A stretch of DNA of 64,000 nucleotides from a virus (lineage: Duplodnaviria; Caudoviricetes): IMG/VR virus record IMGVR_UViG_3300028048_002144; one strand, 5' to 3'. Shown piece after piece: positions 2,801 through 22,782 of this stretch. The notes under the pieces were generated by a model that was not told where the DNA came from, searched no databases, and saw nothing but the letters and a program-made list of their open reading frames with translations. Numbering within the stretch: the stretch's first letter is position 1; every line of letters starts with the position of its first letter. The position numbers and the translations under genes were made by a program.

Positions 2801-2851
2801 ATAAAAATTCCTCCTTGTATGATTTTTATAAGATGTCTTTCACTGACATCT

Positions 2852-4420: not shown

Positions 4421-4433
4421 ATTTTTCCTTTCC

Positions 4434-4619
4434 TCATCCTATAAGAGCCATTATTGATCTTATTAAAAATACTAAAGTTGCAAGTATAAAAATAAAGAGG
4501 GCGATTAGATTTGTCGCATACGCCCTCATGACTAATTGTTCTTGCTTCTTTAATATTCTATACGTAATAATTCCTTCAATAAGTAGGAAAAGTAGCGACA
4601 TTAGAATATTATAGCCCAT
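4434..4619 (-). CDS. Small membrane protein
   Basis: Two hydrophobic segments; packed in an operon with an RBS. Confidence 0.55.
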   Translation of the reverse strand: MGYNILMSLLFLLIEGIITYRILKKQEQLVMRAYATNLIALFIFILATLVFLIRSIMALIG

Positions 4620-4622
4620 TAC

Positions 4623-5120: not shown

Positions 5121-5122
5121 AA

Positions 5123-6184: not shown

Positions 6185-6258
6185 AAAATAGTCCTTTCGT
6201 AAATATTTCTATATAAAATATGACAGATTGCAGCAGATATTAACAAAAAAAGAAGAGC

Positions 6259-7293
6259 TTATTCGCTCTTCTTAAATAATTTTTTATAACTCTCGTTAAT
6301 AATATGTGTTACTTCGTTAACTATTCTGATAGCACTATTTTTATTTGATACGATAGATTTGCTTAAATCTAACTGCTCTGCATGGACTATATCCCCACGG
6401 TTTAAAGTAAGATAATTAAATATCTCCTCAGATATATCTTTAAAATCATTGTTCTGTATTTTGATTATGATATCATCTGTTAATTTCCCTTTGTAAAAGA
6501 TTTTCCAGAAGTTTTTTCCTACGATAATATCTTCGTCTAAGAATAACCATTTTAAATATCCTTCTAGGGCCTTTAAAGCGGGTAAAATTACGCAGGAGTA
6601 ATCATCTAGTATTAAGTCTGCGTTGATTAGAACTTCAGCCGGTGTGAGCATTTTAATGATGGATATGTCCAGGTCTAAATAACAGTCGGGTAATTTCGTC
6701 TTTAATATTTCCCGTACTTCTTTTACTTTTAAATTTGTCTGTAAAGTAGAATTATATTTATTGATTAATTCTTCTAAAGTAAAGTCTTCCCATTCAGTCA
6801 TAAGAATTAGTATTTCAGCGAATATATAAACTGGCTTGCCTTGAATATTAAGAATTCGTTTCTCTTTGTTGTATTTTAGGTATAAATAATCGCCATAACT
6901 ACTTTGTACTAAATAGTTTATTGGCGTATTATTCTTTAAGGTTAATAAAAGTCTTGAATTAGATTTTAAGGTTTCTATTAACAAATTAAATTTTTCTATT
7001 TTAATATTAGATGAAGTATATGTTTTACTTCTGATATTAGAAGGGTAAGCTAATTTGCTTTCTATAAGTTCTTTTAGTTTTTTAGATTCAATACTATCAT
7101 CAGCAATAATAGCTGTAGTTTTGTTTTTGAACACAAAATGAAGATAATGCTTTTTCTTATTAACAAAAAAGATGATACTAGTTTTATTAATATTCTGGAA
7201 AAGATTTGTGCAAGAAAAAGTTTTTCCGAATAATTCTTTCCCAGAAGACTCTGTTAAAAAATGTATCTCTGGCTTTTCTATATAATAATACAT
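6259..7293 (-). CDS. RnlA/RNase LS-like HEPN endoribonuclease
   Basis: DYSCVILPALKALEGYLK and the HEPN R-x4-H motif (RGDIVH) are typical of the RnlA toxin C-terminal domain. Confidence 0.65.
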   Translation of the reverse strand: MYYYIEKPEIHFLTESSGKELFGKTFSCTNLFQNINKTSIIFFVNKKKHYLHFVFKNKTTAIIADDSIESKKLKELIESKLAYPSNIRSKTYTSSNIKIEKFNLLIETLKSNSRLLLTLKNNTPINYLVQSSYGDYLYLKYNKEKRILNIQGKPVYIFAEILILMTEWEDFTLEELINKYNSTLQTNLKVKEVREILKTKLPDCYLDLDISIIKMLTPAEVLINADLILDDYSCVILPALKALEGYLKWLFLDEDIIVGKNFWKIFYKGKLTDDIIIKIQNNDFKDISEEIFNYLTLNRGDIVHAEQLDLSKSIVSNKNSAIRIVNEVTHIINESYKKLFKKSE

Positions 7294-7356
7294 AATTACT
7301 CCAAAAAAATAACAGCATTACATTATTGTAATACTGTTATTCTAACAGAATATATT

Positions 7357-8007
7357 TTATTCTGCGATAAAAATTATATTTTTTGTAACTATTCCATCTG
7401 GCTTACCATTCTTAATTACTATAGTATTTTGATCGCCTTTTTCGACTTTCCATTTTGCACTAATTCCTGGTACAGGAACTTTTTCGTTTTCTTCGCAAGT
7501 GTATTTTTTAACCACTCGATTGTCTTTAGATTTATATGTTACTGTATATAATTCTTTTTCTTTTTCCTGGTCAAGTAAAGCTACTTTTTTAACTGTAATG
7601 TTTCCTATTTGACCATTAGGATGCGTAAATCTTTCTTTTACGACTACAGCTATAATACCTTTATCTGCGTCTACATTTCCGGCAATTTGAAGTCTGAAAT
7701 TAGGATCTGATTCCTTTTTTGTTACTTCTACCTTTTTACCATTATCTTTAGTAAAACTCTGCTCTTTAGTACCAGATAAAGATAGATTCTTTATTAGAAT
7801 CTCAGAAAAGTTTGTAATTAGAGATTCGTTATCGTTTATCGAGTATTCTCCGTCCAACACTAGCTGGCTTAAACTTGTGTCTACAGCCTTTTGTAATGCT
7901 TTCTCAGCTTCGTTTTCTCGAATATCACGATTAAATACGGTCATCAATATCATTACTGATAATACAATAATGATAAATCCGATAAAGGCTTTATATATAA
8001 TCTTCAT
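7357..8007 (-). CDS. Membrane-anchored pilin/TadE-like protein
   Basis: Single N-terminal TM followed by a helix; last gene of a cluster of pilin-like ORFs. Confidence 0.5.
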   Translation of the reverse strand: MKIIYKAFIGFIIIVLSVMILMTVFNRDIRENEAEKALQKAVDTSLSQLVLDGEYSINDNESLITNFSEILIKNLSLSGTKEQSFTKDNGKKVEVTKKESDPNFRLQIAGNVDADKGIIAVVVKERFTHPNGQIGNITVKKVALLDQEKEKELYTVTYKSKDNRVVKKYTCEENEKVPVPGISAKWKVEKGDQNTIVIKNGKPDGIVTKNIIFIAE

Positions 8008-8024
8008 AAACTATCCTCTTTTCG

Positions 8025-8510
8025 TTATTCGTGAACGCCCACATATAATGTTCTGGTAGTCTTTGTGTTATTAGTGCCTAATACTGTTAATCGAACAGTA
8101 TATAATCCTTCGGAGTTAAAAGTAATTGTTTTATCTACTGAATTTACTGTTGATTTGAATACATCCATTTTCTTATCTTTTTCAGTTTTATCTACAGAAA
8201 TGATATTTACTTTATTTATATTTGAACCTTTAATAAATCCAGTACCATCAGATTTATAATAACTATATGTTTGGTTAACGATAATATCATCATTAACCTT
8301 AAAATCTACTACAGTCTTATGGCTTTCTGCCTTTGCAGCATCGGTAGATTCTTTAGTTGACATATCTGTTTTTTTAACTCCAGCACTAATTTCCTGACCA
8401 GAAATTGTCGTGATAGATAAATTTCCAATATTGCTTATAGCAAAAATAATTACAATGGCGGTCATAGCTGCTATTATTGCTCCACCATATTGATCAAAAA
8501 ATGTTTTCAT
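8025..8510 (-). CDS. Pilin-like protein
   Basis: N-terminus MKTFFDQYGG followed by a hydrophobic helix. Confidence 0.5.
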   Translation of the reverse strand: MKTFFDQYGGAIIAAMTAIVIIFAISNIGNLSITTISGQEISAGVKKTDMSTKESTDAAKAESHKTVVDFKVNDDIIVNQTYSYYKSDGTGFIKGSNINKVNIISVDKTEKDKKMDVFKSTVNSVDKTITFNSEGLYTVRLTVLGTNNTKTTRTLYVGVHE

Positions 8511-8520
8511 AAAAAACCTC

Positions 8521-8664
8521 TTAGCCTATTAACGATAAAAACTGTCTAAATAGATCAGATAAAGGATTATTTGGTTGCATCATTAGAAAAACTACGCCTA
8601 AAAAGATGGTAAAACCAATTAAACCTAAAGCTAATCCACCGTTTTCCTCAATGATTCGCTTCAT
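8521..8664 (-). CDS. 47 aa pilin-like microprotein (not in ORF track)
   Basis: Translates as MKRIIEENGGLALGLIGFTIFLGVVFLMMQPNNPLSDLFRQFLSLIG; GAGGT RBS. Confidence 0.7.
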   Translation of the reverse strand: MKRIIEENGGLALGLIGFTIFLGVVFLMMQPNNPLSDLFRQFLSLIG

Positions 8665-8686
8665 AACTTAAATTACCTCTTCTAAA

Positions 8687-8794
8687 TTAAAAACTTGATA
8701 ATTGAACTAGTGTAGAACCCAAAAAGCCAATCGCAACTATACCTATAACGATAGCTAAAATCGTTCCACCATATTCAGATAAAAAATGTGGCAT
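8687..8794 (-). CDS. 35 aa pilin-like microprotein (not in ORF track)
   Basis: Translates as MPHFLSEYGGTILAIVIGIVAIGFLGSTLVQLSSF; AAGGAGTG RBS. Confidence 0.7.
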   Translation of the reverse strand: MPHFLSEYGGTILAIVIGIVAIGFLGSTLVQLSSF

Positions 8795-8807
8795 GGTATA
8801 TCACTCC

Positions 8808-9143
8808 TTATCTAATACTCGTAGTAATTTCATGTGTTTCATTAATGCTCAATAGCTTAATCTGATATTTATACTCAAGTGTTGCGCTACCATACATATG
8901 ATCTCCATCATTTGTACGACTCATCTTATTGACGGTTAATTTATAACCATTTTTATCAGCTTCGTCTTTCTGGGCAGAAATTACCTCATCTGCAAAATTA
9001 GAATTTTCGATCTCAGTTACATATTTATCTAATGATGCTCTTGCGTTACGTGTAGCAATAGATGATGTAACTAATCCTGTACCAACGAAAACAAGAAGTA
9101 AGATAAGAATTACAGTTACAAAACCTTTAATTATGTTTTCCAT
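8808..9143 (-). CDS. Pilin/TadE-like membrane-anchored protein
   Basis: N-terminal hydrophobic helix and small beta-rich C-terminus; first gene of the cluster. Confidence 0.5.
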   Translation of the reverse strand: MENIIKGFVTVILILLLVFVGTGLVTSSIATRNARASLDKYVTEIENSNFADEVISAQKDEADKNGYKLTVNKMSRTNDGDHMYGSATLEYKYQIKLLSINETHEITTSIR

Positions 9144-9258
9144 AAAACGCTCCTTAATTAAAAAATTATATTTTTATCACTATTATGAATATGACAGATT
9201 AGACCGTGCATAACCATGTATAAAAAGAAAAAGGACGTTAAAAACGTCCTTTTTAAGT

Positions 9259-9570
9259 TTACAGATTGTCAAATTTATCCAATCCATGTAATCTTTTCAT
9301 CTTCTTATACATTCTTAGATATTCAATAGGTTCTGTTTTGATATTGCACATACCGAAATATATATCTAAATTTCCGTTCTTAAAATCATCAACGAGTGTT
9401 TTTAATTTAAAAACGTTATTTCTATAAATTTCTGTATGATCTAAATTGCAACTCTCTAAAAATAGAAGATGTTTGTACAATTTCCCATAATCCTTTAAAG
9501 CTTGTTTAATAACCACGATTGAAAGATTAACTAACCCCGTTGAATCAAAAGTTGTAATTTCTTTCATCAA
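9259..9570 (-). CDS. Hypothetical protein
   Basis: 103 aa ORF with a GAGGT RBS, followed by a terminator. Confidence 0.6.
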   Translation of the reverse strand: MMKEITTFDSTGLVNLSIVVIKQALKDYGKLYKHLLFLESCNLDHTEIYRNNVFKLKTLVDDFKNGNLDIYFGMCNIKTEPIEYLRMYKKMKRLHGLDKFDNL

Positions 9571-9584
9571 ATATTACCTCTTTT

Positions 9585-10625
9585 CTAGTATGGATGGCAT
9601 TTATCTTTAAGTACAGTAAACTTAATACCGTATTTTTCAGATAAAGTCTTTAATTCAGCTCCAAAAGCTTTAAGAGAAGCGCTGTTACCATCTAATGAAA
9701 TTTCCATATGGTAATTAGGAGTAGAACTCTTTTTAAGTTCTTCCATCTTTTTCTTTTCAGCTTCTTCTTTTTCTTTTTTTAAGAGTGCTTCTTTTTCAAG
9801 CTGCTCTTTAAGTTCCTTAGCTTTTGCTTCTGCTTCAAGACGAGCTTTTTCAGCCTCTTCACGTTTTCTCTGTTCTTCGGCAAGTCGAAGAGCTTCCTTT
9901 TCTTTAGCCTGGGCCTTAATTCGCTCTTCATCTTCTTTTCGCTTGTTAACAGCAGCCATCATTTCTACACTGAAACCATTAACATCCAAAGTATCATCAG
10001 ACATATACTTGTTTTTCAACATTGCAAAATCTGATTCATTGAATTTCTGCTCTACGATTGTATTTGCAGTAGAAAGCACAATCTTGATCTGATTATCGAG
10101 ATTATCAACCTTATCCTGGGCAGCCTTAAATTCAATTCCCTGGGCCTTAATGTCTTCCTTGATTGCTTTCTTTGTAGTTGTAAGATTAGTAAAGAAATCT
10201 CTTTCTACAAAACGAGACTTGTACTCATCTCTCAATCCTAATTCTTCAGATACTTCAGTAATGCAACTTCTAGCATACTCAAGCTTTTCCTGACGAATCT
10301 TTTCATCATACTGGTCTGTCTGTAGAAGAATAGTTTCTTTTGCTTCGGAAAGAATGTTTTCAATTTCTTTACAGTTTGCATCAAACTCTTTAATAGGCTT
10401 TTCAAGTTCCTTTTTGATTGTTTTTCTGAACTTTTCAATATCAAGAATTGTTCCACCAATCTTCTTTGCATCAGCTTTAGAACTCTTATAATTATCTTCT
10501 GTAATTACAATGTTCTTGTAGGTTTCTACATATTCCAAAGCTTCCTTTTTAGCCTTTTCAAAGTCGCATACAACAGATGGGACTGTGGTTTTTGCATTTG
10601 TAATATCTAAAATTTCGTTGTTCAT
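9585..10625 (-). CDS. DUF1351-like coiled-coil protein (phage/MGE recombination-module associated)
   Basis: Pattern DFEKAK...YKNIVITED...RKTIKKEL.KPIKEF followed by a long charged coiled coil. Confidence 0.65.
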   Translation of the reverse strand: MNNEILDITNAKTTVPSVVCDFEKAKKEALEYVETYKNIVITEDNYKSSKADAKKIGGTILDIEKFRKTIKKELEKPIKEFDANCKEIENILSEAKETILLQTDQYDEKIRQEKLEYARSCITEVSEELGLRDEYKSRFVERDFFTNLTTTKKAIKEDIKAQGIEFKAAQDKVDNLDNQIKIVLSTANTIVEQKFNESDFAMLKNKYMSDDTLDVNGFSVEMMAAVNKRKEDEERIKAQAKEKEALRLAEEQRKREEAEKARLEAEAKAKELKEQLEKEALLKKEKEEAEKKKMEELKKSSTPNYHMEISLDGNSASLKAFGAELKTLSEKYGIKFTVLKDKCHPY

Positions 10626-10730
10626 GAGTTTCTCCTTTCATACTTTAAAAATATCAATTTTAATATGAAAGATTTTTAAGATAAAAATGAAGGGCTAAAA
10701 AGCCCTTCATTTAATATATTTTTATGGCGT

Positions 10731-11717
10731 TTAGTTAAAACATTTTTCACGAGTCAATTTATTTAATTCTTCAAGTACATCTGCATGTGAATTAAGGTAT
10801 TCTTTCACGTTTTCTCTTCCCTGGAATCTTTCTCCATTAGGTAATGTAAACCAAGCACCACTTTTTTCAATGATATCGTAATCGCATGCTAGATCAACAA
10901 GTTCTCCAGTAGTATCAATACCTTTGCCAAAAGTTATTTCTACTTGTGCTTTTCTAAAAGGTGGAGCTACCTTATTCTTTACTGTTTTAATAGTTACTTC
11001 ATTAGAAACAAGTTCTCCATCTTTCTTAATACTTCCAGTTCGTCTAATATCCAAACGTACAGAAGAGTAAAATTTAAGTGCACGACCTCCACAAGTTGTT
11101 TCTGGATTTCCAAACATAATTCCTACTTTTTCTCGAAGCTGATTAATGAAAATAACTGTACAACGAGTCTTAGAAACTATAGCTGTAAGTTTTCTTAATG
11201 CCTGAGACATAAGCCTTGCCTGGAGTCCAACATGCGCATCACCCATATCTCCATCAATTTCAGCTTTAGGAACGAGCGCAGCTACGGAATCTACTACAAT
11301 AAGATCTACTGCTCCAGAACGAACCAGCATTTCTGCGATTTCTAATGCCTGTTCTCCGCAGTCTGGCTGAGAAATATAAAGATTATCAGTATCTACACCA
11401 ATATTTTTAGCATAGACAGGATCAAGTGCGTGTTCTGCGTCAATAAAAGCTGCAACTCCACCAGTTTTTTGTACCTCAGCTACACAATGTAAGGCGATAG
11501 TTGTTTTACCACTACTTTCTGGACCGAACATTTCAATAATTCTACCCCTCGGAATTCCACCAACGCCTAAAGCAACATCAAGAGCAAGAGAACCAGATGA
11601 AAAAGTTTCTACATTCATATCTGTAGAATCTCCAAGCATCATGATTGCACCTTTGCCATACTGCTTATTGATTTGCTCAATAGCGGTGTTTAAAACTTTT
11701 TCTTTATCTTTGTTCAT
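10731..11717 (-). CDS. recA: Recombinase RecA
   Basis: [42 protein letters not shown] and KNKVAPPF. Probable start at 11717 (MNKDKE, GAGGT RBS). Confidence 0.98.
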
Positions 11718-11818
11718 AAAATACCTCACTTAGGTTTTTGACTACATATTTAATATGACTTGAAGAAAGCGTTTTTCATTGTTTTTAGTAATAAAAAAAG
11801 TGCTAATAATAGCACTTT

Positions 11819-12637
11819 TTATATGTATTTAATTTTCTTTTTTATTTCTTGAATCTCCTTCAATTGTTTCTTTAACGTAGTAATATTTTTGGCATCCTCT
11901 TTGGTCTTTGCTTCTTTGAAATTAGCTATTAGTTCCTTTACTTCTTTTTCTTTACTATTTGCTGCATCTTTTACAATATTTTTGTATACTTTAGGAGATT
12001 CGCAGTACAAATTTTGAAGACTAATAGGGTTTCTAACTGGAGTACCATATTCTACAGTAAAGAATTTGTTTTCTTTTTTTACAGCCGGTTTTTGATTGAT
12101 AAAATCCATGAAATTATTGTATGTAGGTTTTTCATCTAGGCTATTAGAATTAAGTGTGAATATTTTCTTCTGTTTATTAGTTTTATTTACAAAAGAAATG
12201 TCATCATAAGCTATATTCTCTAGCTGATTGAAGCATAATCCAATGGTTTCTAGCTCTTTAATGTTTAATAGCTTGCTTGAACTAATTCCATTTTCATACA
12301 TTTTACTAGCTTCTTTACCACCAGCAATAAATTCAAGAATTTTAGGATAGTCACTAACAATATCCCAGCCCATCTTATCGGCTACCATTTCAGCTAAAGA
12401 TACTGTTTTGCCACATACAAAACAATGCATTCCCTTAAAAACAGTTCCATCGCTTCTTTGATGTACGATAAGACTTGTACCAGATGAGTTATGATCATTA
12501 TGATATATACAAAGAAGATTGCAATGATTACCATTTGGCTCTAATTTTTTAGAATTATACTCATCTAAAGTAAATCCTGCTCTCTGTAATACATCTAACA
12601 TATCACAATTAGCAATAATACTATTACTATCTAACAT
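11819..12637 (-). CDS. CHC2 zinc-finger protein (DnaG-type Zn-binding domain without TOPRIM)
   Basis: CIYHNDH...HCFVCG near the N-terminus; no primase catalytic motifs recognised. Confidence 0.6.
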   Translation of the reverse strand: MLDSNSIIANCDMLDVLQRAGFTLDEYNSKKLEPNGNHCNLLCIYHNDHNSSGTSLIVHQRSDGTVFKGMHCFVCGKTVSLAEMVADKMGWDIVSDYPKILEFIAGGKEASKMYENGISSSKLLNIKELETIGLCFNQLENIAYDDISFVNKTNKQKKIFTLNSNSLDEKPTYNNFMDFINQKPAVKKENKFFTVEYGTPVRNPISLQNLYCESPKVYKNIVKDAANSKEKEVKELIANFKEAKTKEDAKNITTLKKQLKEIQEIKKKIKYI

Positions 12638-12740
12638 TTGTAAGCTCTCCTTTCATACTTAAAATTCTATTTTAAATATGAATTATTTTTAGAAAAAAAT
12701 AACTACCAACAAAAGTCGGTAGCTATTTTTATATTCAATA

Positions 12741-13790
12741 TTAAATTTTCCATAACAAGTTTTCGTTTTCTGCACTATCTTCAATTCTCTGAATAGAGAT
12801 TCTGGAATTAGCAGCAGTGTTTTTAATGCTCTTAGGCGTATCTTTCTTAAGTGCCTGTCTTACACATGGCAAGTTTCTAATATGTTTCTCAACTTCATTA
12901 TAAAGAGCATTTACTTTTTCCTTAGTAATGAACTCTCTATTATTATCCTGGACAATGAGATATTCATAACCAGCATCCTTTACAAGCTGTAGAAATTCTG
13001 GATCCTTGCCAATTTTATCAGCATTATATTTCATGTCAGGTGTATTTAGGATACTGTTTTTGGCCATAAGAAGAAATCTTTCATAAGGAAGAAGGCTCTG
13101 TAAAATACTATTTAAAAATTCATTCTGCTCTTTCTTAAAAAATTCTTCTTCGGGATTTCCAAAACTAGATGTTTTATCTAGTGTTGTCGTATCCAATTCC
13201 TCAATCTGAGTAAATCTTTCAGCTTCAAGTGCGCCTTCGATCTGTGCGGTAGTTAATCCAGTTTCTTCCTGGAGCATCTTAACAGTAATATCTTCTCGGT
13301 CAATTCCCTGCTTTTCATAAGCATCAAAGATTTTATGTAATCTAGGAATAATTTCGTTATGATACTGAGATAGATTTAATTTCTGTCTAACTGCTCTTGT
13401 GCCACCGTGGAGACTATGTAAATTTGTAAAAGTAGTAATTGCATGTTTGCCATCATACTTTCTAAAATTGTTGATATTCTCCATGATAGCTTCTGATACA
13501 ATATCTGCGCCCCACTCACTATCGTTACTTGAGGACATATAATTGCTGAACTTCTTTAGGCAAAAACCATTGATATAAGCACCTACCTGATCATAAAAAA
13601 TAGTGTTAATTGCGGTGATAAGTTCAGGATCCTGTGAAGATACATCTTTGTCTAATTCTTTATCTACAATCTGCGCTAGACGAAAAAAATACATATTCGA
13701 ATTATTTATTTCGGCTGCTGTTTCCTTTAGAAAAGGAAACTTTTTAAGATAGATGCGCTGAGATGTAGATTTGATTGTTTTCTTTCCCAC
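12741..13790 (-). CDS. Divergent sigma70-family RNA polymerase sigma factor (SigB/F/G/FliA-like layout)
   Basis: Region 2-like DIVSEAIMENINNFRKYDGKHAITTF, region 3 HTH-like TVKMLQEETGLTTAQIEGAL, region 4.1-like NPEEEFFKKEQNEFLNSILQSLLPYERFLL. Probable GTG start at 13790 behind GAGGAGGT. Confidence 0.65.
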   Translation of the reverse strand: MGKKTIKSTSQRIYLKKFPFLKETAAEINNSNMYFFRLAQIVDKELDKDVSSQDPELITAINTIFYDQVGAYINGFCLKKFSNYMSSSNDSEWGADIVSEAIMENINNFRKYDGKHAITTFTNLHSLHGGTRAVRQKLNLSQYHNEIIPRLHKIFDAYEKQGIDREDITVKMLQEETGLTTAQIEGALEAERFTQIEELDTTTLDKTSSFGNPEEEFFKKEQNEFLNSILQSLLPYERFLLMAKNSILNTPDMKYNADKIGKDPEFLQLVKDAGYEYLIVQDNNREFITKEKVNALYNEVEKHIRNLPCVRQALKKDTPKSIKNTAANSRISIQRIEDSAENENLLWKI

Positions 13791-13797
13791 GATTTTA

Positions 13798-14007
13798 TTA
13801 CCTCCTCGTTTCAAGAAAAATTTTGTTTGCTTTTTCCAAAATATCTTTTTCTTTTTGTTTAACTTGAGCCACATCGTTATATAATTCTCTCATTGTAGAA
13901 TCATTGATGTTATGCTCACGCATATAAAGTTCAGCGGAAGTAAAAAAATCTTTATTTTTGTCATTATTTTCTATGAAGGATTGTAACAATACATCTTCCT
14001 GTGTCAT
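13798..14007 (-). CDS. Small protein cotranscribed upstream of the sigma factor
   Basis: Probable start MTQEDV at 14007 behind AAAGGAG; stop abuts the sigma RBS. Confidence 0.6.
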   Translation of the reverse strand: MTQEDVLLQSFIENNDKNKDFFTSAELYMREHNINDSTMRELYNDVAQVKQKEKDILEKANKIFLETRR

Positions 14008-14134
14008 AAAGACTCCTTTCTTTTGAACTTTAAAAATAATATGACCAAAAATAAACAAAAATTAGTGTGGGTAATTCGCTCGAATGAGCTGATAATGTAT
14101 AGGATATTTTTATTAATATATTTAAACCTTATTC

Positions 14135-14177
14135 ATTATAATTTGTTATTATAGAAATTGCAACATTTTTTTTGCAA
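14135..14177 (-). promoter_or_regulatory. Tandem sigmaA-type promoters upstream of the sigma operon
   Basis: Minus-strand TTGCAA(14163-14158)-17 bp-TATAAT(14140-14135) and TTGCAA(14177-14172)-18 bp-TATAAT(14153-14148). Confidence 0.6.
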
Positions 14178-14224
14178 ATATAAAAGAGCGCTTTATTGCT
14201 TTGCGCTCTTCTATATTCTTATAT

Positions 14225-15460
14225 CTAAAATCCTTTAATTCTGAAGTTTTGCTCTTTCTGGTTTCTATTATATGAATTCTTATAATATTCTTGAATCCTT
14301 GCTTCAACATCATCTAGGTTTTTGCAGAATTCTTTATTGATTTCTTTTTTAGCATCATCAGATAGATATGCGTAATTATATAAATCATTCATTATTTCAT
14401 CTAAAGTATTATTTGGAAGTAACCTAGATTTATATTCAGCAAATTTACCGGACTTATATAAGTATTTTTCACGTTTTTTAAATATCTCAGTCTTTTTAGA
14501 GTGTTCTTGATAGAATGATTCTGGGAAAAAGGCATTTCCAAAATCAAAAAGTGGTGCTGGGCCTATATAATCTCCAGTATTTACATCTCTCAAGAAACCA
14601 AAATTACCTAAATGTCTATCGAAGTTCATAGTCAGTCTATCAACGATAATCATTTTGTCTATGAATTCTTTAGCATGTGGGATCTCAAAACGTTCTATGC
14701 ATCTTATAAGAACATCATAAGTATGTTCTGCAGTATTTTGCATTTCTTCTTTTTTTAAAGGAATCTGCCTATATAAATACCATGCTGGTACAAATTCAGT
14801 ATTCTCATTTACGAAATTTTCGCAGATACTACATACTTCATATCCTTCTATACGTAGTTCATATTTAACAAAATCAATAATATTAATCTTTCCTAATAAC
14901 TTGCTTACAAGATACTCATTTAAAGGTTCCTGGCAAAAATCTTTAGACATACTCTTTATCAAATAGTTTTTACCGTTTTCCTTAACCCATTTTTTCTTTA
15001 GTAGGCCATTAGTAGTTAACTCTGGTGCATTATGGTCCAAGTTTATTCTAGGCAGATTAACGATATTTTTTGAGAATGTAGTATCACCAAATACTGTTTT
15101 AAAATTATTGGTGAAAAAGTTGTATTTATCCCATGTTTCAGTATCTCTGTATTTAACCCAGTATTGATCAGTCATAGAAAAGAAATGTGGTTGTGTGCTA
15201 TCTGGATCCCAGTATACACTTTTACCAGTAGGGAAGTCATATCTGTTTTCTGAAATGATCCTTTTCTTAAACCAATAATTTAAGGCTTCAACACATTCGT
15301 TTGCATCAATAATACAAGGTGGTGCTAATTTCTTATTTATTATTTCTGCTTTATCAATATGAAAATATGGAATGTTTAATGCATTTCTTTGTATTTCGCC
15401 ATTTAATTTTACCACTTCTGTATTTTTATTCATAAGTGTTGCGGATATTTTATTTGCCAT
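14225..15460 (-). CDS. HipA/CtkA-family Ser/Thr kinase
   Basis: PELTTNGLLKKKW, YLIK, EPLNE, catalytic NFDRHLGNFG and APLFDFG motifs. Confidence 0.85.
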   Translation of the reverse strand: MANKISATLMNKNTEVVKLNGEIQRNALNIPYFHIDKAEIINKKLAPPCIIDANECVEALNYWFKKRIISENRYDFPTGKSVYWDPDSTQPHFFSMTDQYWVKYRDTETWDKYNFFTNNFKTVFGDTTFSKNIVNLPRINLDHNAPELTTNGLLKKKWVKENGKNYLIKSMSKDFCQEPLNEYLVSKLLGKINIIDFVKYELRIEGYEVCSICENFVNENTEFVPAWYLYRQIPLKKEEMQNTAEHTYDVLIRCIERFEIPHAKEFIDKMIIVDRLTMNFDRHLGNFGFLRDVNTGDYIGPAPLFDFGNAFFPESFYQEHSKKTEIFKKREKYLYKSGKFAEYKSRLLPNNTLDEIMNDLYNYAYLSDDAKKEINKEFCKNLDDVEARIQEYYKNSYNRNQKEQNFRIKGF

Positions 15461-15474
15461 AACAGTCTCCTAAA

Positions 15475-17178
15475 TTAAATCTCGATCGTGTCAGCACAAA
15501 GGATATCATCTTGCCACCAAGTTAGAATCTGATATTTATGCTGGCAATCATCAGTTGTATATTGCGTAATAGAATTAGGCATTGAGTGCATAATATCGAA
15601 ATTCTCTCCATCATGTTTATCAATACAAATCAAACATGGTGCAGCTCCGTTAGTATTATTTCTCGTTGATGTAGGCACGATATGGATTAATAGATCATCC
15701 TTTTTAATAACAAGATGTCCGAATCCAGTACCTTTCTTATCGTCAGAACGTACTTCTATTAAGTTAGAGTTTATATTGTAGCCCATAGCTGCAGTTGTAG
15801 ATCCAGGAACAATATATGTTCTGAAATTTCCATCAGCAAATGAACCTCTTACAATAAAAGAGTTATCTCCAATATTGATATCAATAGAAGTTCTGCCAGG
15901 TTCACTTACATATGCATACTGATTATTTGCACTGTCTACAAACAATGCCATGATTTTAGGGTTAGGGTTTGAATCAGACATTTTAAGTGGCGCAATAAGT
16001 GCTCTATACTTATCTCCATTAGTTGCTCCAGGAGATAACACCTCTAAATCGTATAAGTTATACACAAAGGTATTTAAACTTTTAGCAGTGCTAAAATCAT
16101 TGTTATAGATATCATCATTTGCTTCTTCTATCTTCTTGCTAACACTGTTTACATGCAAATCAAAAGATTCTAATTTTGATGCATCAACTTCGGCAGTCTT
16201 ATTATCTGGTACAATTTCTTCAATGGTAGAAGTAAGTGCATCTCTATCATAATGTGGATGTGCTTTTTTGTATTCAGCCTTATCAGAATACATTCTTCGA
16301 TCAGATTCTTCTTCGATTTCTTTTATGGTCATTTGTCCATCGCCTACGCAAAAGCCGGCAGAAATAGAATATTTGACACCATCTTCATCTTCATTTGTGA
16401 GTTGCTCTAATCTATCTTTTACGATTTGGATTTTATTTGTAGCTACAACCTGTCCCATTCCATCTACTAATACAGAGAACTCGTCACCACCGACTCTATA
16501 TACATGCTCTTCGCCAAAGGTTTCTTTTAAAACTTTGGATATGCCAGTAAGCAGAATATTTCCATAAGAATGACCATATGTATCATTAATCATTTTTAGG
16601 TTATTAGCATCAAAAGAAAAAACGCCAAGTGTAGAGATAGGGATCTTTTTAATATCATTAGCATAAGCATGTCTATTTAAAAGTCCCGTTAATTCATCAT
16701 GAATATAATATTGTTTTAGTTTAGCATTCTCTTCTTTTATTTTCTGAATAGTTAATGCATCTTCTGCTGATATATTGGAAGTAAGATTATCGTTTTCAGT
16801 CTCGTTTAACAATGTAAACTGTTCCTGGTTAATAGGCTCGATTACATTAAAATCTTTTGCAATATCTTTATAATCTTCTCCCAGGATCTTTTTGATTTTA
16901 TTAGCATCACTTTCATACTTAACAGAATCGATCATTATTGAAATCTTATCATTCGTGCCATTGACTGACTTGATGTAATCGGCTTTCAACCCTTCACGTA
17001 GTAACCCCGCAAAGATTAATGACTCTATATCAATAATTTCGTTTAACTGCTTTTCAGAAAGGTTATTCTGGAAAACAGCAATTTGCTCATTCTTTTTTAA
17101 TGAATTATTCTGCTGGAGCATGTTTAAGTAATAATGCTTTTTATTTAAAATAGAGTTAGTTACTTTTATATTACTCAT
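15475..17178 (-). CDS. Diguanylate cyclase (central GGDEF domain, unknown flanking domains)
   Basis: HDELTGLLNR, DANNLKMINDTYGH and YRVGGDEF. Confidence 0.9.
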   Translation of the reverse strand: MSNIKVTNSILNKKHYYLNMLQQNNSLKKNEQIAVFQNNLSEKQLNEIIDIESLIFAGLLREGLKADYIKSVNGTNDKISIMIDSVKYESDANKIKKILGEDYKDIAKDFNVIEPINQEQFTLLNETENDNLTSNISAEDALTIQKIKEENAKLKQYYIHDELTGLLNRHAYANDIKKIPISTLGVFSFDANNLKMINDTYGHSYGNILLTGISKVLKETFGEEHVYRVGGDEFSVLVDGMGQVVATNKIQIVKDRLEQLTNEDEDGVKYSISAGFCVGDGQMTIKEIEEESDRRMYSDKAEYKKAHPHYDRDALTSTIEEIVPDNKTAEVDASKLESFDLHVNSVSKKIEEANDDIYNNDFSTAKSLNTFVYNLYDLEVLSPGATNGDKYRALIAPLKMSDSNPNPKIMALFVDSANNQYAYVSEPGRTSIDINIGDNSFIVRGSFADGNFRTYIVPGSTTAAMGYNINSNLIEVRSDDKKGTGFGHLVIKKDDLLIHIVPTSTRNNTNGAAPCLICIDKHDGENFDIMHSMPNSITQYTTDDCQHKYQILTWWQDDILCADTIEI

Positions 17179-17189
17179 ACAAATCCTTC

Positions 17190-17921
17190 CTACTGTAAAC
17201 TACTAAAAATCTTTTTCGAGAGTTTCAGATCAAATTTTTTCCCTAGAATTGTATTAGAAGATATATCAAACCATAAACCTTCTATTTTTTTATTGTTATT
17301 CATTTTCTCAAGTATTTCTTTAAAAGAAACTACTATAGGCTTATAGCCATCTTTTTCGATATGATTATTCTGGTTATTTATGAAATTGTAATATTCTGAG
17401 GAATCAGTAAAAGCTAAATAATATTCTTTATCAGCATCCTGGTAGGTTGCATATTCAATTTTGCACCCATTTACTTTTCCTGGCACTACAAAATTAAATC
17501 TGGCCAATTTCTTATAAAACTTCTTCATTTTTGTTCGTTTTAAAAAGAAAAGAATTTCTTTAGCATATTTATTAGGATATTTGGAAACTGCCTCAGAATA
17601 TGGTTCATTTCGTCTTTCTCTCAACATAGAAGCTGGCACAATATCACCATTAGGCAGTTTAATATCTCTAACCATAAAATTATTAACGATTTCTTTTATC
17701 TGTATGATTGTATAATTATTCGCATGCATAGAATATGGTATTCTATGGTTCATATCCTGCAAATTAATGGTTGCAGCATTTTCTTTTTTAGCTAACTCTA
17801 ATTCTAAATAGGTTTCTGATGTTTTAGCATCTTTGCAAATATTAATGAATAAATATACTGGATCGCCATTTTTTAATTCATTAAAAATATTAGAAACCTG
17901 ATTTTGTTGGATTGTACTCAT
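17190..17921 (-). CDS. SseB-like domain protein
   Basis: FVVP...YYLAFTDSSEY...EGLWFD resembles the SseB N-terminal family. Confidence 0.45.
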   Translation of the reverse strand: MSTIQQNQVSNIFNELKNGDPVYLFINICKDAKTSETYLELELAKKENAATINLQDMNHRIPYSMHANNYTIIQIKEIVNNFMVRDIKLPNGDIVPASMLRERRNEPYSEAVSKYPNKYAKEILFFLKRTKMKKFYKKLARFNFVVPGKVNGCKIEYATYQDADKEYYLAFTDSSEYYNFINNQNNHIEKDGYKPIVVSFKEILEKMNNNKKIEGLWFDISSNTILGKKFDLKLSKKIFSSLQ

Positions 17922-17931
17922 AAAAATACTC

Positions 17932-18642
17932 CTATTTGATTATGTCTGAGAACTTAAGAAGTTTATCCTTTTTCTGCATAATGTAATGATTTCTGAGATA
18001 AAGGATTTCTACCTGGTTCTCTTCTTTAAGTGAAAAATGGAAATATGATAACGGAGAATCATAGAAAATCTTCATTGCATCATAAAGTTTATGCTTTTTA
18101 ATAAAATCATATCCTTCATCACTACTAAAGAAATCATATAAATCATAAATATCCATCTGAGCAGATAAATACTTCTCGATCAATAAACATAGTAATTCGT
18201 TTGCAATAAAAATCCCATCTTCTTCGCTGAATAAAGAAGGTAAATAAGTATCATGGTTGTTTTCTACATTCATAAAAAGTTTTTTAATGTTTTTCTTTTT
18301 ATTTTGATTAGCATATTCTGGGTAACATAAATTAATTATGTATTCAATCTTATTTTTACGATATGATTTAGGAATTTTAATATAATTTCTGATAATTTTG
18401 TCTAGTTTAAGATGCTTTAATACATTATCGTTTAAGTATTTTTTAGCTTCATCTGGAGTAAGATATAAAATATTTTCAATTGCATATTTTATAATTATGA
18501 TAGCAGTCTTTTGATTTTTCTTTTTTATACTATCACTAAAAACGCCATTTTCACTTTTTCTAAAAATATAGCCTGATAATTGTTCTATAGTTGGGCTAAG
18601 CAGCAAAGCTTCGTATTCTGAGTAAATATCAATTTTTCGCAT
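17932..18642 (-). CDS. DUF4046-like helical repeat protein
   Basis: IIKYAIENIL.LTP...LKHLKL...YP pattern repeated twice in degenerate form. Confidence 0.45.
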   Translation of the reverse strand: MRKIDIYSEYEALLLSPTIEQLSGYIFRKSENGVFSDSIKKKNQKTAIIIIKYAIENILYLTPDEAKKYLNDNVLKHLKLDKIIRNYIKIPKSYRKNKIEYIINLCYPEYANQNKKKNIKKLFMNVENNHDTYLPSLFSEEDGIFIANELLCLLIEKYLSAQMDIYDLYDFFSSDEGYDFIKKHKLYDAMKIFYDSPLSYFHFSLKEENQVEILYLRNHYIMQKKDKLLKFSDIIK

Positions 18643-18973
18643 TTTTTACCTCTTCTATTTCATAAAACAGTTCTTCAATATACTGATACAGATAATCAGA
18701 TATTTTGATTTTTTCTTTATCGTCCGGATCTGTTATAGATGCTTTAATAGATTCATTTAGATAAATTAGAAAAGGTAAACTTTCTTTTGTTTTTCTTTTA
18801 TTAAATTTCCACACGTTATTATCTAGCCCGTTACTACCAGTCTTTTTCTTCTCTTCCAAATGAGCGAAGATAATATCATTAATTGTAGGAGTATACCCTA
18901 CAATATAAGGAACTTTATTGATATTCTTTTCAATCTTCTTAGTTTGTTTCTCGTAATACTTTTCAAATGTCAT
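18629..18973 (-). CDS. Hypothetical protein
   Basis: AGGAGGAG RBS; overlaps the next gene. Confidence 0.65.
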   Translation of the reverse strand: MTFEKYYEKQTKKIEKNINKVPYIVGYTPTINDIIFAHLEEKKKTGSNGLDNNVWKFNKRKTKESLPFLIYLNESIKASITDPDDKEKIKISDYLYQYIEELFYEIEEVKNAKN

Positions 18974-18989
18974 AAAAAGTAGCTCCTCC

Positions 18990-19979
18990 TTACAGCCAGA
19001 ATACCGGTTTAATTATTTCTCTTGAATCTGCGTCAACCAAAATGCCCGAATTAGTATAAATAGTTTTAGCTGGTAATCCGAAGTCTCTAGCATAATGAGA
19101 AAAACAACGTTTTACATTTGTTAGATCAACACCATACATATCTTCGACTTTTTCTACAGTATCTCTATTGCAAATAGAATTCTTATCTGCAGATTCGCAT
19201 AATTCTTCTAGTGTGATAATTGAAGTAAACGCATCAGTTAAACATTTAGTTCTATATCCTACTGTGATGAAATTATCATCCATAATGGGTTCTATTTTAG
19301 GCATTAGGTCTGGGAATTCTTTTTTAGATTCTAATAGAATATTAGCCTTATCCTCAGTCATTTCCTCATGTTTGACTAACCAGTATTCTTTATCAATAAT
19401 ATCCCAGTATTTTGTTTTAGATCCATTCGTACAAAAGTCTGGAGTATTATAAGATACGTTATCTTTAATTTCGCAGCTTTCAGATAATACTGCATGCTTG
19501 AAATCTAATGCGAAACCATTTTTAACGAAATCCATATGTAAGTATTTACTTTTAGGAATAATCTCTTTATTAGATAATCCATTATGTACTGGCAAATCTA
19601 AAAATACCTGGGTTACAGGATTTTTCTCCCTATCTCTAGTAAGAGGAGTAAGCCAATACTTATCAGTCATACTTCTACTCATAGAAAGAAAGCCCATAAG
19701 TTCCATTTGGGCTTTAGTATTTAACGGTATTTCGATAGGAGTAGAAGACATTATCCTGGCGATTTTATCGAGATCAGGTCTATCTCTTGGAATTAGTCTC
19801 TTCTTCAACCAGTATTCTAATGATTTTGCTAAATAGTATTTAGGTGAATTTTGTAATAATAACGGAAGTCTGTTCTCGTTATATATTGCAGGAACTGACA
19901 TTACCCTAAAACCATTTTCGGATATCTTAATGTCAGCTAAAAGAACATTAAATCGTCTATCTTTAAGTAAAAAATACAT
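18990..19979 (-). CDS. Degenerate HipA-like kinase paralogue (probable pseudokinase)
   Basis: Shares YWLKKR, SMTDKYW and PDFCTNGSKTKYW with 14225-15460 but lacks DRH and DFG. Probable start MYFLLK at 19979. Confidence 0.6.
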   Translation of the reverse strand: MYFLLKDRRFNVLLADIKISENGFRVMSVPAIYNENRLPLLLQNSPKYYLAKSLEYWLKKRLIPRDRPDLDKIARIMSSTPIEIPLNTKAQMELMGFLSMSRSMTDKYWLTPLTRDREKNPVTQVFLDLPVHNGLSNKEIIPKSKYLHMDFVKNGFALDFKHAVLSESCEIKDNVSYNTPDFCTNGSKTKYWDIIDKEYWLVKHEEMTEDKANILLESKKEFPDLMPKIEPIMDDNFITVGYRTKCLTDAFTSIITLEELCESADKNSICNRDTVEKVEDMYGVDLTNVKRCFSHYARDFGLPAKTIYTNSGILVDADSREIIKPVFWL

Positions 19980-20059
19980 AATAGTCCTTTCTATTAAAAC
20001 AATCCTTTTAAAATAAATATGACAGATTTCAGCCATTCGAGAAGAAAAATTTAAAAAAA

Positions 20060-20091
20060 ATAATCGCCCCAGGTGAAATTAGGGGCGATTA
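20060..20091. terminator. Intrinsic terminator hairpin
   Basis: TAATCGCCCC...GGGGCGATTA with a flanking A tract. Confidence 0.7.
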
Positions 20092-20106
20092 TTACTATAT
20101 ATTTTA

Positions 20107-22782
20107 TTATTTTTTGTCTTTAGGAACGTAATTTCTCTTATATAGAGTCTTGAAAAGCATTCTCTTATTCTTATCGTCATAACCTCTTATGGCTACGATC
20201 TCTTCAATCTTAAAGTTCTTAATATAAACGATTGTCTGTAAATCTTTAAGCATTCTTTCAGCTTCTGAGAACGAGTAATCTGCTCCGTATTTGACGTAAT
20301 CTGCCAATCTGGAGATAGCACCCTCTGCACTGTCAGAGTGAACTGAACACCAGCATTTATGGCCTGTCTGGGACGCTCTAAGCATATCTCTTGCTTCTGC
20401 ACCTTTAATCTCACCGATAATCATATATCCAGTATCACAAAGAAGGTTGTTAGTTCCTAATTCAGATAGTCCAGTAATTACATTACCGTAATTATCTTTA
20501 ATAATGTGCTGGAAGTATGCATTTGGGTGAATATATGAAAACAACTCGTCAGATTCCTGTGCACATGAGATAGACGCTGTTTTTGGTATATAATCTATAA
20601 GAGCATTCATAAGTGTTGTCTTACCAGATGCAGATGGTCCAGCAAAGATAATTCCAGAAGAACTTACAATTTGCTCTAACAAGAACTTCGCAAGTTTCTG
20701 ATCTAACATTCCTGCATTAATAAGATCAGTTAATGTAGTTTTCTCTTTAGGAACTTTTCTTATGTGCAAATAATAACTGCCGCTCTGGTTAGTTGTAGGA
20801 TACGAAATATTAAATCTTAAAATGTATTTAGGATTAAATGTTGTATCCGTGAAAGGTAAAGGATTATATGAATTAATCGGCATTGCATTTCTTATAAGAA
20901 TACTCATAATAAAACGATTGTAATCTGCCCAATCTAAGAATTTAAGATTTTTAGCAGTATAATGTTTATCTTTTACTTTTACATTAATATTATTAGGACT
21001 GGTAATTCTTATATCAGTTATATTATCATCCATAATCGCATCAGTAAGAATATAGTATGAGAATATCGCTTTCTCTAACATATCCATCAAAACTTCAGTA
21101 TCTCTTTCAGTAAGTCGGCAATGTTTGTTTATAAATACTTTTGCCAGCTGCATAAAACTATCATGTGACTTCTGATCATTATCTCTAATTGCTCTTGAGA
21201 AAGAACTTCTTTCTACAGTTGTAAGATATTTAATTACTTTAGCGAAAGAGTTATCAATTACACTATAAGTTGCATCAGTTTGTGGTCTTGGTGGAGTAGG
21301 AACTATATAGCCTTCGTCTGGGGCTTCGAGAACAGAGATATCAAATTCTGGTGTATAATCATCTATCGCATTTAGAAATGGAACATGATTATTCTTTTTT
21401 GCGTTAATCTGTTCTACTGGCACTTTTTTATGTGGAGAATAAATAGCATGGATTAGATGATTTTTATCCTTTAATATTTTAGAACTGTCTCGCTTAATAA
21501 AATTTCTTTTAGTATGCGAGATATCGTCATAAAAGCCTTCATCATCTTCATCTGAAAAAATATTCTCTTCTTCGTCAAGAGTATTAATAGTTACTTCTGG
21601 TTCTGCAGTATCGTCTGATGCTGTTTCAGTTTCATTAGGGATTGTGACATCCTTAGTGTCTTCTGATTCGGCATTAGTTTCTAATGCAGTATCAGGAATA
21701 TTGTTTTTTGAAACGGTTTCTTTTTCTGATTCAGTAGCTACATGATTATCAGGTTCATTTGTAGAATATACCATTTTAGGCGTATCCATTTCATCTTTAG
21801 GACGAAGGGAAGATATATTCTGTGATGTCTCATTCTGTGGTGTTTCTTTTGGAACATCAATAGCTTCGGTATCGTTAACTAAAGCCTCGTTAACCATATC
21901 GGATTTATTATCAGAAAGAATATTCTCGTTATTAGAAACTGCAGTTGCCTGGTGCTTTAATGCTCGTGTTTCTACATTTAATTGTTCAAGCGCACCTAAA
22001 GCAGACTGAATTAAATTAGTCAGTTCTTCTACTTTCTGCTCATTACCAGCATACGTACTTTCTTTAGAATCATGCAAAGTGCTCCGATTGCTGTCAGGAT
22101 TATTAGTGGTTTCTTTAATTTGTTCATTATTCTGTACCTCTTCTCTAGAATTATCTGTTTCATCAGTTTTAGTTTCGTCAATTAGACTTGCTAAAGACTG
22201 TAAAGCATTTACATCGTAACTTGGTTCGATAGGTTTTGATATTTTTTCTTTAATTTGGTTGTTATTTTCTTTTGCTTGTGATAAATCTTCTTCCGTTGTT
22301 TCTGGTGATAACAATGTATTTGAATTAGGAGAATTAAAGAAATTCTTTGTTTTTTCTTTTAGTTCAGAAATAAAACTCTTCATAAAGAATTCTTTTTCTT
22401 CTTCAGACATTTCAGTATCTCTTTTAGAGATTACGTCAATGATAATAGAGTTATTTTCCTGTTTAAATTTTAAGTAAGAAAGACTCTTTAATTCATCAAT
22501 TTTTCCATTTTTACTATATGAACTATATATTGATGCGAGAATTGTTTGATAATAATTGTTTTGAATTGTATAGTTTATGATTTCAGAAATCATATCATCT
22601 GCCTGATCAATAGTAAGTCTTAAATTAAAAGTCAACACAGGGAGTTTGATAATATCTTCAAATTTTTCGTTACCTCTAAAATTTAAAGTATATTCTACTG
22701 ATTCGCCCCTGGTATATTCCTTTTTTAACACCGCTAATTGCTCAGGTTCAGTAATTAAATTTTGGTTGATTTGGTATTTCAT
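20107..22782 (-). CDS. TadA/CpaF (VirB11-like) secretion ATPase with long acidic N-terminal extension
   Basis: ITDIRI, HIRK, Walker A GPSASGKTT, QESDEL, IIGEIKGAEA, TGH and SVHSDS. Probable start at 22782 behind AAAGGAG. Confidence 0.85.
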   Translation of the reverse strand: MKYQINQNLITEPEQLAVLKKEYTRGESVEYTLNFRGNEKFEDIIKLPVLTFNLRLTIDQADDMISEIINYTIQNNYYQTILASIYSSYSKNGKIDELKSLSYLKFKQENNSIIIDVISKRDTEMSEEEKEFFMKSFISELKEKTKNFFNSPNSNTLLSPETTEEDLSQAKENNNQIKEKISKPIEPSYDVNALQSLASLIDETKTDETDNSREEVQNNEQIKETTNNPDSNRSTLHDSKESTYAGNEQKVEELTNLIQSALGALEQLNVETRALKHQATAVSNNENILSDNKSDMVNEALVNDTEAIDVPKETPQNETSQNISSLRPKDEMDTPKMVYSTNEPDNHVATESEKETVSKNNIPDTALETNAESEDTKDVTIPNETETASDDTAEPEVTINTLDEEENIFSDEDDEGFYDDISHTKRNFIKRDSSKILKDKNHLIHAIYSPHKKVPVEQINAKKNNHVPFLNAIDDYTPEFDISVLEAPDEGYIVPTPPRPQTDATYSVIDNSFAKVIKYLTTVERSSFSRAIRDNDQKSHDSFMQLAKVFINKHCRLTERDTEVLMDMLEKAIFSYYILTDAIMDDNITDIRITSPNNINVKVKDKHYTAKNLKFLDWADYNRFIMSILIRNAMPINSYNPLPFTDTTFNPKYILRFNISYPTTNQSGSYYLHIRKVPKEKTTLTDLINAGMLDQKLAKFLLEQIVSSSGIIFAGPSASGKTTLMNALIDYIPKTASISCAQESDELFSYIHPNAYFQHIIKDNYGNVITGLSELGTNNLLCDTGYMIIGEIKGAEARDMLRASQTGHKCWCSVHSDSAEGAISRLADYVKYGADYSFSEAERMLKDLQTIVYIKNFKIEEIVAIRGYDDKNKRMLFKTLYKRNYVPKDKK

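Follow-up and report, generated by a model that had tools for sequence, protein, structure and literature searches.

A divergent sigma-70 family protein and a -35-less promoter motif on a plasmid-like element: a candidate private transcription system

The DNA analysed here, referred to as the window, is a stretch of 64,000 nucleotides (IMG/VR record IMGVR_UViG_3300028048_002144), a 64-kb part of the 205,255-bp metagenomic contig ERZ27252073 k141_863469, and all motif and regulon counts given below cover the window. Its minus strand carries a gene for a 349-aa protein, P0001, which almost certainly belongs to the sigma-70 family and is preceded by a small open reading frame (ORF). We consider it moderately likely that P0001 reads a promoter motif found throughout the element, including the copy ahead of its own operon. 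The case for P0001 as the reader is based on the geometry of the promoters, on the pairing of a motif that has no -35 element with an insertion in sigma region 4.2, on a base switch at -13 between elements, and on a histidine at the position of sigma70 Q437, opposite C-12. In the mechanism that we propose, P0001 would steer the host core RNA polymerase to -35-less, extended -10 promoters, where the start, Y-1 R+1, follows a discriminator of 6 nt. Almost every operon of the element would then belong to a single private regulon. The motif 38 nt ahead of the bicistron of small ORF and sigma gene would allow the sigma to amplify its own synthesis, and two overlapping sigmaA-like promoters, seen in the sequence of this element alone and not general, could supply the first sigma molecules.

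The initial annotation, made by reading the letters, had described the gene product as sigma70-like, with recognizable regions 2, 3 and 4.1 and an atypical region 4.2, and both parts of this description were upheld by family profiles that match SigA and by structure matches to sigma chains. Searches with the single P0001 sequence returned little. Pfam and PHROGs gave no sigma match, NCBIfam TIGR02937 matched below threshold (E = 9.5e-4), no sigmaE or sigmaK model of NCBIfam was matched, tblastn against 50,697 phage and 72,556 plasmid (PLSDB) records found nothing, and a word-indexed protein search returned P0001 itself only. When 1.84 billion representative proteins were searched exhaustively with phmmer, 50 relatives at 19–35% identity were recovered; of 48 relatives, 12 carry Pfam Sigma70_r2 and r4, and 7 match Pfam Sigma70_r3. 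A profile of the 16 closest relatives, no member of which was picked for a sigma annotation, aligned with SigA structures over regions 2.1–4.1 and ended where region 4.2 starts (E = 1e-7). With the 48-member profile the match to SigA rose to E = 5.6e-21, and region 4.2 was bridged by a gap opposite approximately 25 family-specific residues. The AlphaFold (AF2) model of P0001 (predicted local distance difference test, pLDDT, 87.3) comprises a region-1.2-like helix followed by sigma2, sigma3 and sigma4. Comparison of a predicted structure with sigma domains had been proposed in the initial annotation as a check, and the model retrieved sigma chains only, both in the top 50 Foldseek matches and in the top 50 of VIA-align (Z 10.5–12.4, residues 5–317). 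The clade is known only from metagenomes, with some 50 clusters in a set of 1.8 billion representative proteins.

Family members retain the core-binding helix, the TTF motif (at the Y430 position) and the P-E of the 3.2/4.1 junction, which in P0001 is P213-E214, and region 3 aligns without a break, with E146 at the position of sigma70 E458. Since P0001 keeps the region 2.2 core-binding helix, regions 2.3/2.4 and 3.0, the 3.2 linker and region 4.1, it would, judging from alignment and model, be expected to bind the core RNA polymerase of the host. Region 4 retains 4.1 and the recognition helix, in which TKEKVNALY aligns to TRERIRQIE, and the approximately 25 additional residues lie between the two helices of the region 4.2 helix-turn-helix. 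This insertion (residues 263–288) is predicted with high confidence (pLDDT 97–98) as a helix and a beta-hairpin that separate the first helix from the recognition helix. It follows the pattern P.FI.L.K..G...LI in the near clade, and more distant members have a normal helix-turn-helix.

Such changes raise the possibility that P0001 is a sigma-derived relic that no longer initiates transcription, and that it instead represses by binding DNA or, as a decoy, ties up core polymerase or another partner. This would account for the interrupted region 4.2 helix-turn-helix, for the missing Pfam match of the single sequence, and for the replacement of the region 2.3 tryptophan pair (W433/W434 of sigma70) by Leu/His in P0001. 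We regard a relic as highly improbable, since W433 is often missing in alternative sigmas, the features listed above are kept across the family, the insertion is confidently folded, and both the sequence and the position of the sigma gene are conserved between deeply diverged elements.

The motif that P0001 may read is abundant and strongly oriented. Within the window, GTCATATT occurs 24 times against 4.5 expected, a number reached in none of 100 shuffles, and 22 of the 24 copies are on the coding strand. When one mismatch was allowed, 29 intergenic copies were found on the coding strand, mostly 38–56 nt ahead of start codons (Table 1). Nearly all intergenic regions of at least 70 nt hold a copy; exceptions include the regions before two IscB genes, which are probably later insertions. 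Operons for replication, partition, recombination and tRNA are among those headed by the motif, and no second promoter class was evident in the window. Read as an extended -10 element, the motif is T-15 G-14 T-13 C-12 A-11 T-10 A-9 T-8 T-7, and when GTCATATT is placed at -14 to -7, 21 of 22 copies have a purine at +1 and 19 of 22 a pyrimidine at -1, with a 6-nt discriminator between. The motif thus retains A-11 and T-7, the two bases flipped out by sigma70-type factors, together with the TG. A class-wide -35 box was looked for in the motif alignment and was not found; the -35 zone carries no information, and all upstream columns are at or below 0.5 bit except for the three bases just 5' of the core. 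The -10-dominated motif of the initial annotation therefore holds up as a promoter-like, -35-less sequence that heads nearly all operons of the window. A motif without a -35 element fits a sigma in which the region 4.2 helix-turn-helix is split by a conserved insertion. A full-text literature search for the motif word returned unrelated primer sequences only.

Three forms of the motif can be distinguished, which may differ in strength or timing. The first is tctGTCATATT-N4-ATAG. Another has T at -14 and long conserved flanks, aaaaatctTTCATATTtaaaATAGaatttt (10662–10669, 12675–12682, 28894–28901, 32455–32462 and 53458–53465), and a further one reads caaGTCATATT with AAAAACG approximately 10 nt upstream (11759, 23574, 30120, 37112 and 39247).

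The spacing of TG, hexamer, discriminator and YR start is the open-complex geometry of a bacterial holoenzyme and argues against a single-subunit polymerase. The ...ATAG ending of the motif superficially resembles the start region of T7 and SP6 promoters, and a T7-like single-subunit polymerase promoter was accordingly considered; it was set aside, since the spacing is of sigma type and no such polymerase was seen. A broader alternative is that the motif is read by some other element-encoded factor, such as the 540-aa protein encoded at 414–2036 or a polymerase whose gene lies in the remaining 141 kb of the contig, and that the 349-aa sigma is just one of the regulon's products. The window is about one third of the contig, and the 540-aa protein has a C-terminal helix-turn-helix of GerE/LuxR or sigma4-like type (residues 463–499), so that this proposal, which can also draw on the resemblance to T7 and SP6, has candidates to offer. 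It nevertheless seems improbable to us. The spacing of the motif is that of a sigma70-type open complex, which needs regions 2 and 3.0, and region 3 is missing from extracytoplasmic function (ECF) sigmas, which rely on a -35 element. Neither the window ORFs nor the listed loci of the relatives showed a polymerase domain, and the family of the 349-aa sigma is the only one seen in every motif-bearing locus.

To place the sigma and the motif in other elements, relatives were gathered through the sigma, and the seven larger ones carry sigmas that are 21–30% identical to P0001; those of L004, L006/L007, L008, L009 and L010 are 25–30% identical. The gene order HipA-like gene, small ORF, sigma is kept in the window and in all seven, and a GGDEF gene comes before it in the window and in five of them, so that these genes form a conserved module. 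The 25–30% identical loci have, where the DNA covers it, the order secretion-type ATPase, GGDEF, HipA_C-like, small ORF, sigma. Downstream of the sigma, relatives often encode a DnaG-type zinc-ribbon protein, DnaE and SSB. In the window, the next gene past the sigma (11819–12637) encodes a 272-aa protein with a CHC2/DnaG-type zinc ribbon, and its counterpart is followed by DnaE and SSB in L009 and L013, which suggests that the sigma heads a replication module. In our reading, the gene encodes a functional, though very divergent, sigma-70-family factor and is part of the backbone in a family of 100–300-kb plasmid-like elements, whose hosts are probably of Lachnospiraceae type.

Co-occurrence of the sigma clade and the motif across related replicons, a further check proposed in the initial annotation, was seen, in a set of relatives selected by their sigma. 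GTCATAT is enriched on the coding strand in each of L004, L006, L008, L009 and L010 (p = 4e-5 to 4e-7 against shuffles), approximately 40 nt ahead of start codons. The motif stands ahead of the operon of small ORF and sigma in six of the seven larger relatives (L002, L004, L006, L008, L009 and L013), and L010 has CTCATAAT in this place. A more distant relative, the 150-kb contig L013, keeps the order of HipA-like gene, small ORF and sigma, and its sigma, P0073, belongs to another subclade and has a normal region 4.2 and a Pfam r2 match. This element uses tctGACATATT before 9 of 13 genes (1100–19131), including its small ORF/sigma operon. Among TGnCATAT(T/A) sites, 9 of 10 in L013 have A at -13, and 45 of 51 in the window clade have T. 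Position -13 is not read by sigmaA, and a base that is fixed within an element and differs between elements suggests a reader that travels and co-evolves with the element. A box, AATTTTAAAAA, at -35 to -25 of several L013 sites, was not used, as it lies partly within duplicated leaders.

When 24 kb of the window were compared with plasmids and phages by megablast, no match was returned, and a related-locus search found no relatives of the protein P0051, which is carried on a 308-kb contig, in genome contigs and none of P0001 or P0051 in viral contigs. An alignment scan with the HipA-like protein found a single stand-alone homologue, in Lachnospira multipara ATCC 19207, at a locus with neither sigma nor motif; this match supports no more than an affinity with Lachnospiraceae. 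A further comparison is with pCY360 of Butyrivibrio proteoclasticus B316 (NC_014389.1), which has the best-matching secretion-type ATPase (40.6% identity) and shares a backbone of ParM-type actin, topoisomerase, signal peptidase I and metallophosphoesterase genes, but has no homologue of P0001 and no enrichment of the motif (GTCATATT, 24 copies versus 22 of a control word). We count this joint absence in favour of a link between sigma and motif. With its actin-type partition gene, the backbone in common with pCY360, and no virion genes seen in domain scans of the window ORFs, the element is well described as a plasmid-like replicon, as had been proposed from the window sequence. As a separate observation on pCY360 (L011, NC_014389.1:214468-255580), many of its genes have (c/g)CATAAT 26–55 nt upstream, a box with C at -12 on a replicon that carries no sigma of the P0001 family.

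The sequence of the sigma is compatible with the invariant bases of the motif. In gapless hidden Markov model alignments, His128 of P0001 corresponds to Q437 of sigma70 and Glu146 to E458. Wild-type sigma70 reads C at -12 poorly, the sigma70 substitution Q437H suppresses a -12 T-to-C change, and E458 contacts the -14 G:C pair (PMC2613000). The aligned His128 and Glu146 therefore match the invariant C-12 and G-14 of the motif, an analogy by alignment that applies to most family members.

The presence of C at -12 also brings the sporulation sigmas of the host into consideration. The initial annotation had named, as an alternative, a host sporulation sigma that reads the motif; in the more general form weighed here, a host sigma of the mother-cell sigmaE/sigmaK type (-10 CATATTAT/CATATAAT), or sigmaA acting on an extended -10, reads the motif, and the sigma of the element serves other promoters or competes for core. 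G-14 and T-13, both invariant in our motif, are not part of the sigmaE and sigmaK consensus sequences. CATATTAT has been called the canonical -10 box of the Clostridium difficile mother-cell sigmas, whose -35 is ATA (sigmaE) or AC (sigmaK), so that sigmaK needs just AC (Saujet et al., 2013, PMC3789822). Clostridial promoters of this type and the motif share the -10 core CATAT(T/A), with C where sigmaA has T, and CATATTAT can be read in 8 of 22 motif copies, the core CATATT being invariant. Neither ATA nor AC is conserved 16–18 nt upstream of the motif; the match to the mother-cell -10 box adds some weight to the earlier alternative, but the -35 elements are absent. For sigmaA, the TG at -15/-14 is that of a classical extended -10, full promoters of the form TTGACT-17-(TGa)CATAAT are used in the distant relative L014, and the sigma operon has no separate priming promoter in most relatives, which would be easier to understand if a host enzyme read the motif. 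Against reading by a host sigma are the poor use of C-12 by sigma70, the element-wide T-to-A switch at -13 in L013, and the lack of a second promoter class that the sigma of the element could serve within 64 kb. In addition, the motif heads operons for replication, partition, recombination and tRNA, which a stable replicon needs in growing cells and not just in the mother cell. On balance we consider a host reader unlikely.

The assignment of the motif to P0001 has weaknesses of its own, and the following points weigh against it. The motif core equals the clostridial mother-cell -10 box, and the 64 kb read are part of a 205-kb contig. That a sigma of this family is found wherever the motif is found is true by construction, since all relatives were found via the sigma and motif-only elements were not searched for. 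The copy ahead of the sigma operon is imperfect, with G for T at -15 and without a downstream ATAG box. In most relatives the operon lacks a sigmaA-type promoter, which makes it hard to explain how a purely self-activating loop would be ignited. Finally, some family members break the residue rule: the residue aligned with Q437 is Arg in P0007 (L006) and the one aligned with E458 is Met in P0027 (L013 clade), and C-12 and TG, respectively, are retained nonetheless, so that the residue match is consistent with P0001 as the reader and is not probative.

The organization of the sigma operon is given in Table 1, and the ORFs, promoter sites and motif named in the initial annotation all lie where it had placed them. 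The sigma frame is open over 12741–13874, and its real start is the GTG at 13790, 8–9 nt past AGGAGG; the gene caller of the source assembly agrees on a 349-aa sigma gene. This AGGAGG ribosome binding site sits within the small ORF, whose stop is 7 nt ahead of the sigma GTG, and a ribosome binding site is also found ahead of the 69-codon small ORF. Because two strong terminators bracket the unit, the small ORF and the sigma gene constitute an insulated bicistron, in agreement with the small ORF described earlier as cotranscribed with the sigma, and they are probably co-transcribed and translationally coupled. Directly upstream (14225–17178) are genes for a GGDEF protein (567 aa) and a HipA_C-like protein of kinase fold (411 aa).

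Table 1. Positions of the sigma operon features and of the promoter motif copies in the window
Feature	Position	Strand	Basis or details
Intrinsic terminator of the upstream HipA_C-like gene	14179..14215	-	13-bp stem, -17.3 kcal/mol, z -6.0, then U run
Two overlapping sigmaA-like promoters	14135..14177	-	sequence and consensus scan, 10/12 each
12-bp near-palindrome ATTCGAGCGAAT, between sigmaA-like sites and motif; possible operator	14074..14085	.	sequence only
Promoter-motif copy of the operon, core GTCATATT at 14045-14038	14031..14048	-	motif scan
Small ORF, 69 aa, three predicted helices	13798..14007	-	sequence, fold prediction
Divergent sigma-70-family gene P0001, 349 aa	12741..13790	-	profiles, structure model
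Intrinsic terminator closing the bicistronic operon	12690..12730	-	16-bp stem, -19.4 kcal/mol, z -8.5, U run
Candidate regulon, 29 intergenic motif copies	2107..62682	- (coding strand)	motif scan
22 GTCATATT copies (position of G)	2114, 6224, 9195, 11759, 14045, 20023, 22832, 23574, 25984, 30120, 33458, 37112, 39247, 42507, 46094, 52545, 55681, 57595, 58853, 60548, 61395, 62682		
5 TTCATATT copies; plus 2 other one-mismatch copies	10669, 12682, 28901, 32462, 53465		

When the motif copy of the operon is read as -14 to -7, it predicts a start at A 14031, with T at -1 and a 24-nt leader. The initial annotation had proposed that the sigma amplifies its own synthesis. Since the motif is found ahead of the sigma operon here and in six of seven larger relatives, an autoregulatory loop is plausible, and to this extent the proposal is supported. 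The near-palindrome between the sigmaA-like sites and the motif was considered as a repeated operator and rejected, as its repeat count in the window did not bear this out. The sequence TTCGNNCGAA has 2 copies in the window against 0.32 expected.

Priming of the loop by host sigmaA, the other half of the earlier proposal, fared less well. Two sites are present, TTGCAA (14177–14172) and TATAAT (14153–14148) separated by 18 nt, and TTGCAA (14163–14158) and TATAAT (14140–14135) separated by 17 nt, and for matches of this quality the term near-consensus was generous. Sites of the 10/12 type are not enriched in the AT-rich window (46 found versus 62.7 in shuffles), and a coding-strand sigmaA-like site occurs in only 5 of 35 intergenic regions, the other four of these regions being at least 400 nt long. 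In L006, L009, L005 and L013 there is no space for a sigmaA-type promoter ahead of the sigma operon. L004 (9655–9706) has TTGACT-16-TATACT, then a perfect 14-bp LexA/Cheo box, CGAACACGTGTTCG, upstream of tctGTCATATT; this is the only GAAC-N4-GTTC site across all loci and the window, and the window itself has none. From its sequence, this arrangement suggests that the L004 sigma may be under SOS control, as SigN is. Because the sigmaA sites are not conserved in the relatives, priming of this kind looks lineage-specific.

The small ORF was proposed to encode an anti-sigma or a co-activator. It is found in the same place in all relatives examined, and its products are weakly alike among nine elements, with the pattern IN.FM....S....R.MLE.I..AY. 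The 69-aa product is predicted as three helices (pLDDT 85), for which the Protein Data Bank gave no match at E <= 0.001, and modelling of the 69-aa product in a complex with the sigma gave a score of 0.20 (mark, 0.32), which speaks neither for nor against pairing. The helical protein accompanies the sigma throughout the relatives examined, and may be a partner, a chaperone or an inhibitor.

To our knowledge, only a handful of plasmid-borne sigmas with plasmid-wide regulons have been described, and the studied example is SigN of pBS32. SigN (ZpdN), encoded by the Bacillus subtilis plasmid pBS32, is an ECF-like sigma that reads -35 TTTACG and -10 GATATA, its regulon is plasmid-borne and includes replication and nucleotide genes, and its own gene has a LexA-repressed promoter, PsigN1 (Burton et al., 2019, PMC6751061). 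The two systems would be alike in that a plasmid encodes a sigma with a plasmid-borne regulon, which in our element would be the set of motif-headed operons, and in that sigmaA-type promoters lie upstream of a promoter of the sigma's own class, an arrangement that gives positive feedback and that here would make the sigma gene dependent on its own product. The sigmaA-like promoter and LexA box of L004 are a close parallel to PsigN1. The differences are also clear: the promoter of the ECF-like SigN has two parts, whereas P0001 has a 1.2-like region, regions 2, 3 and 4, the 4.2 insertion and a motif that lacks a -35; in addition, no LexA box occurs in the window, and its motif heads nearly every operon, so that the system appears to serve the housekeeping of the element and not a programme induced by damage. 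The tblastn search of PLSDB with P0001 gave no match, and whether pBS32 is in that set was not checked.

Late transcription of phage T4 depends on gp55, a region-2-only factor that requires the sliding clamp, acting with gp33 on TATAAATA promoters. Like T4, the element has its own sigma-type factor, an extended -10-like box without a -35, and a small gene that may encode a co-factor. Unlike gp55, P0001 has a full sigma2-sigma3-sigma4 architecture, its model aligning through regions 3 and 4, and the small ORF has no detectable likeness to gp33.

Several other genes of the window were recorded. Two IscB-type genes (RRXRR and HNH domains; 46525–47766 and 48969–50219) flank an L,D-transpeptidase gene, the whole spanning 46525–50544. 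Each has a long, structured upstream region without a motif copy, and that of the second is a full HEARO/omega RNA (50283–50544, 114 bits). A ToxN toxin gene (61706–62389) has 3.1 perfect 38-nt tandem repeats directly before it (62391–62507), the layout of a type III ToxIN system. The window also encodes a PIN-PhoH fusion (2852–4420), an RnlA/RNase LS-like toxin (6259–7293) and a RecA of the element's own (10731–11717).

Systems of this kind are already known from SigN and from phage sigmas; what is new is the clade, the 4.2 insertion, the -35-less promoter and the replicon-wide scope. Tentatively, and with somewhat less assurance than we attach to P0001 as the reader of the motif, we suggest that a widespread family of 100–300-kb plasmid-like elements of gut or rumen Firmicutes is transcriptionally autonomous, each with a private sigma that has lost -35 reading through an insertion that reshaped region 4.2, and that drives essentially the whole replicon and itself from one class of extended -10 promoters. 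Such a system would be bistable and phage-like, with sigma and promoters co-evolving. Standard domain libraries miss the clade, and the promoter model provides an annotation rule for transcription units on elements that are otherwise unannotatable. If P0001 is indeed the reader, it would offer a compact, orthogonal pair of sigma and promoter for low-GC Firmicutes, and a natural experiment on how sigma specificity (at -13, at -12 and in the loss of the -35) evolves alongside some hundred promoters, and it would explain how gene expression on giant elements is insulated from the host.

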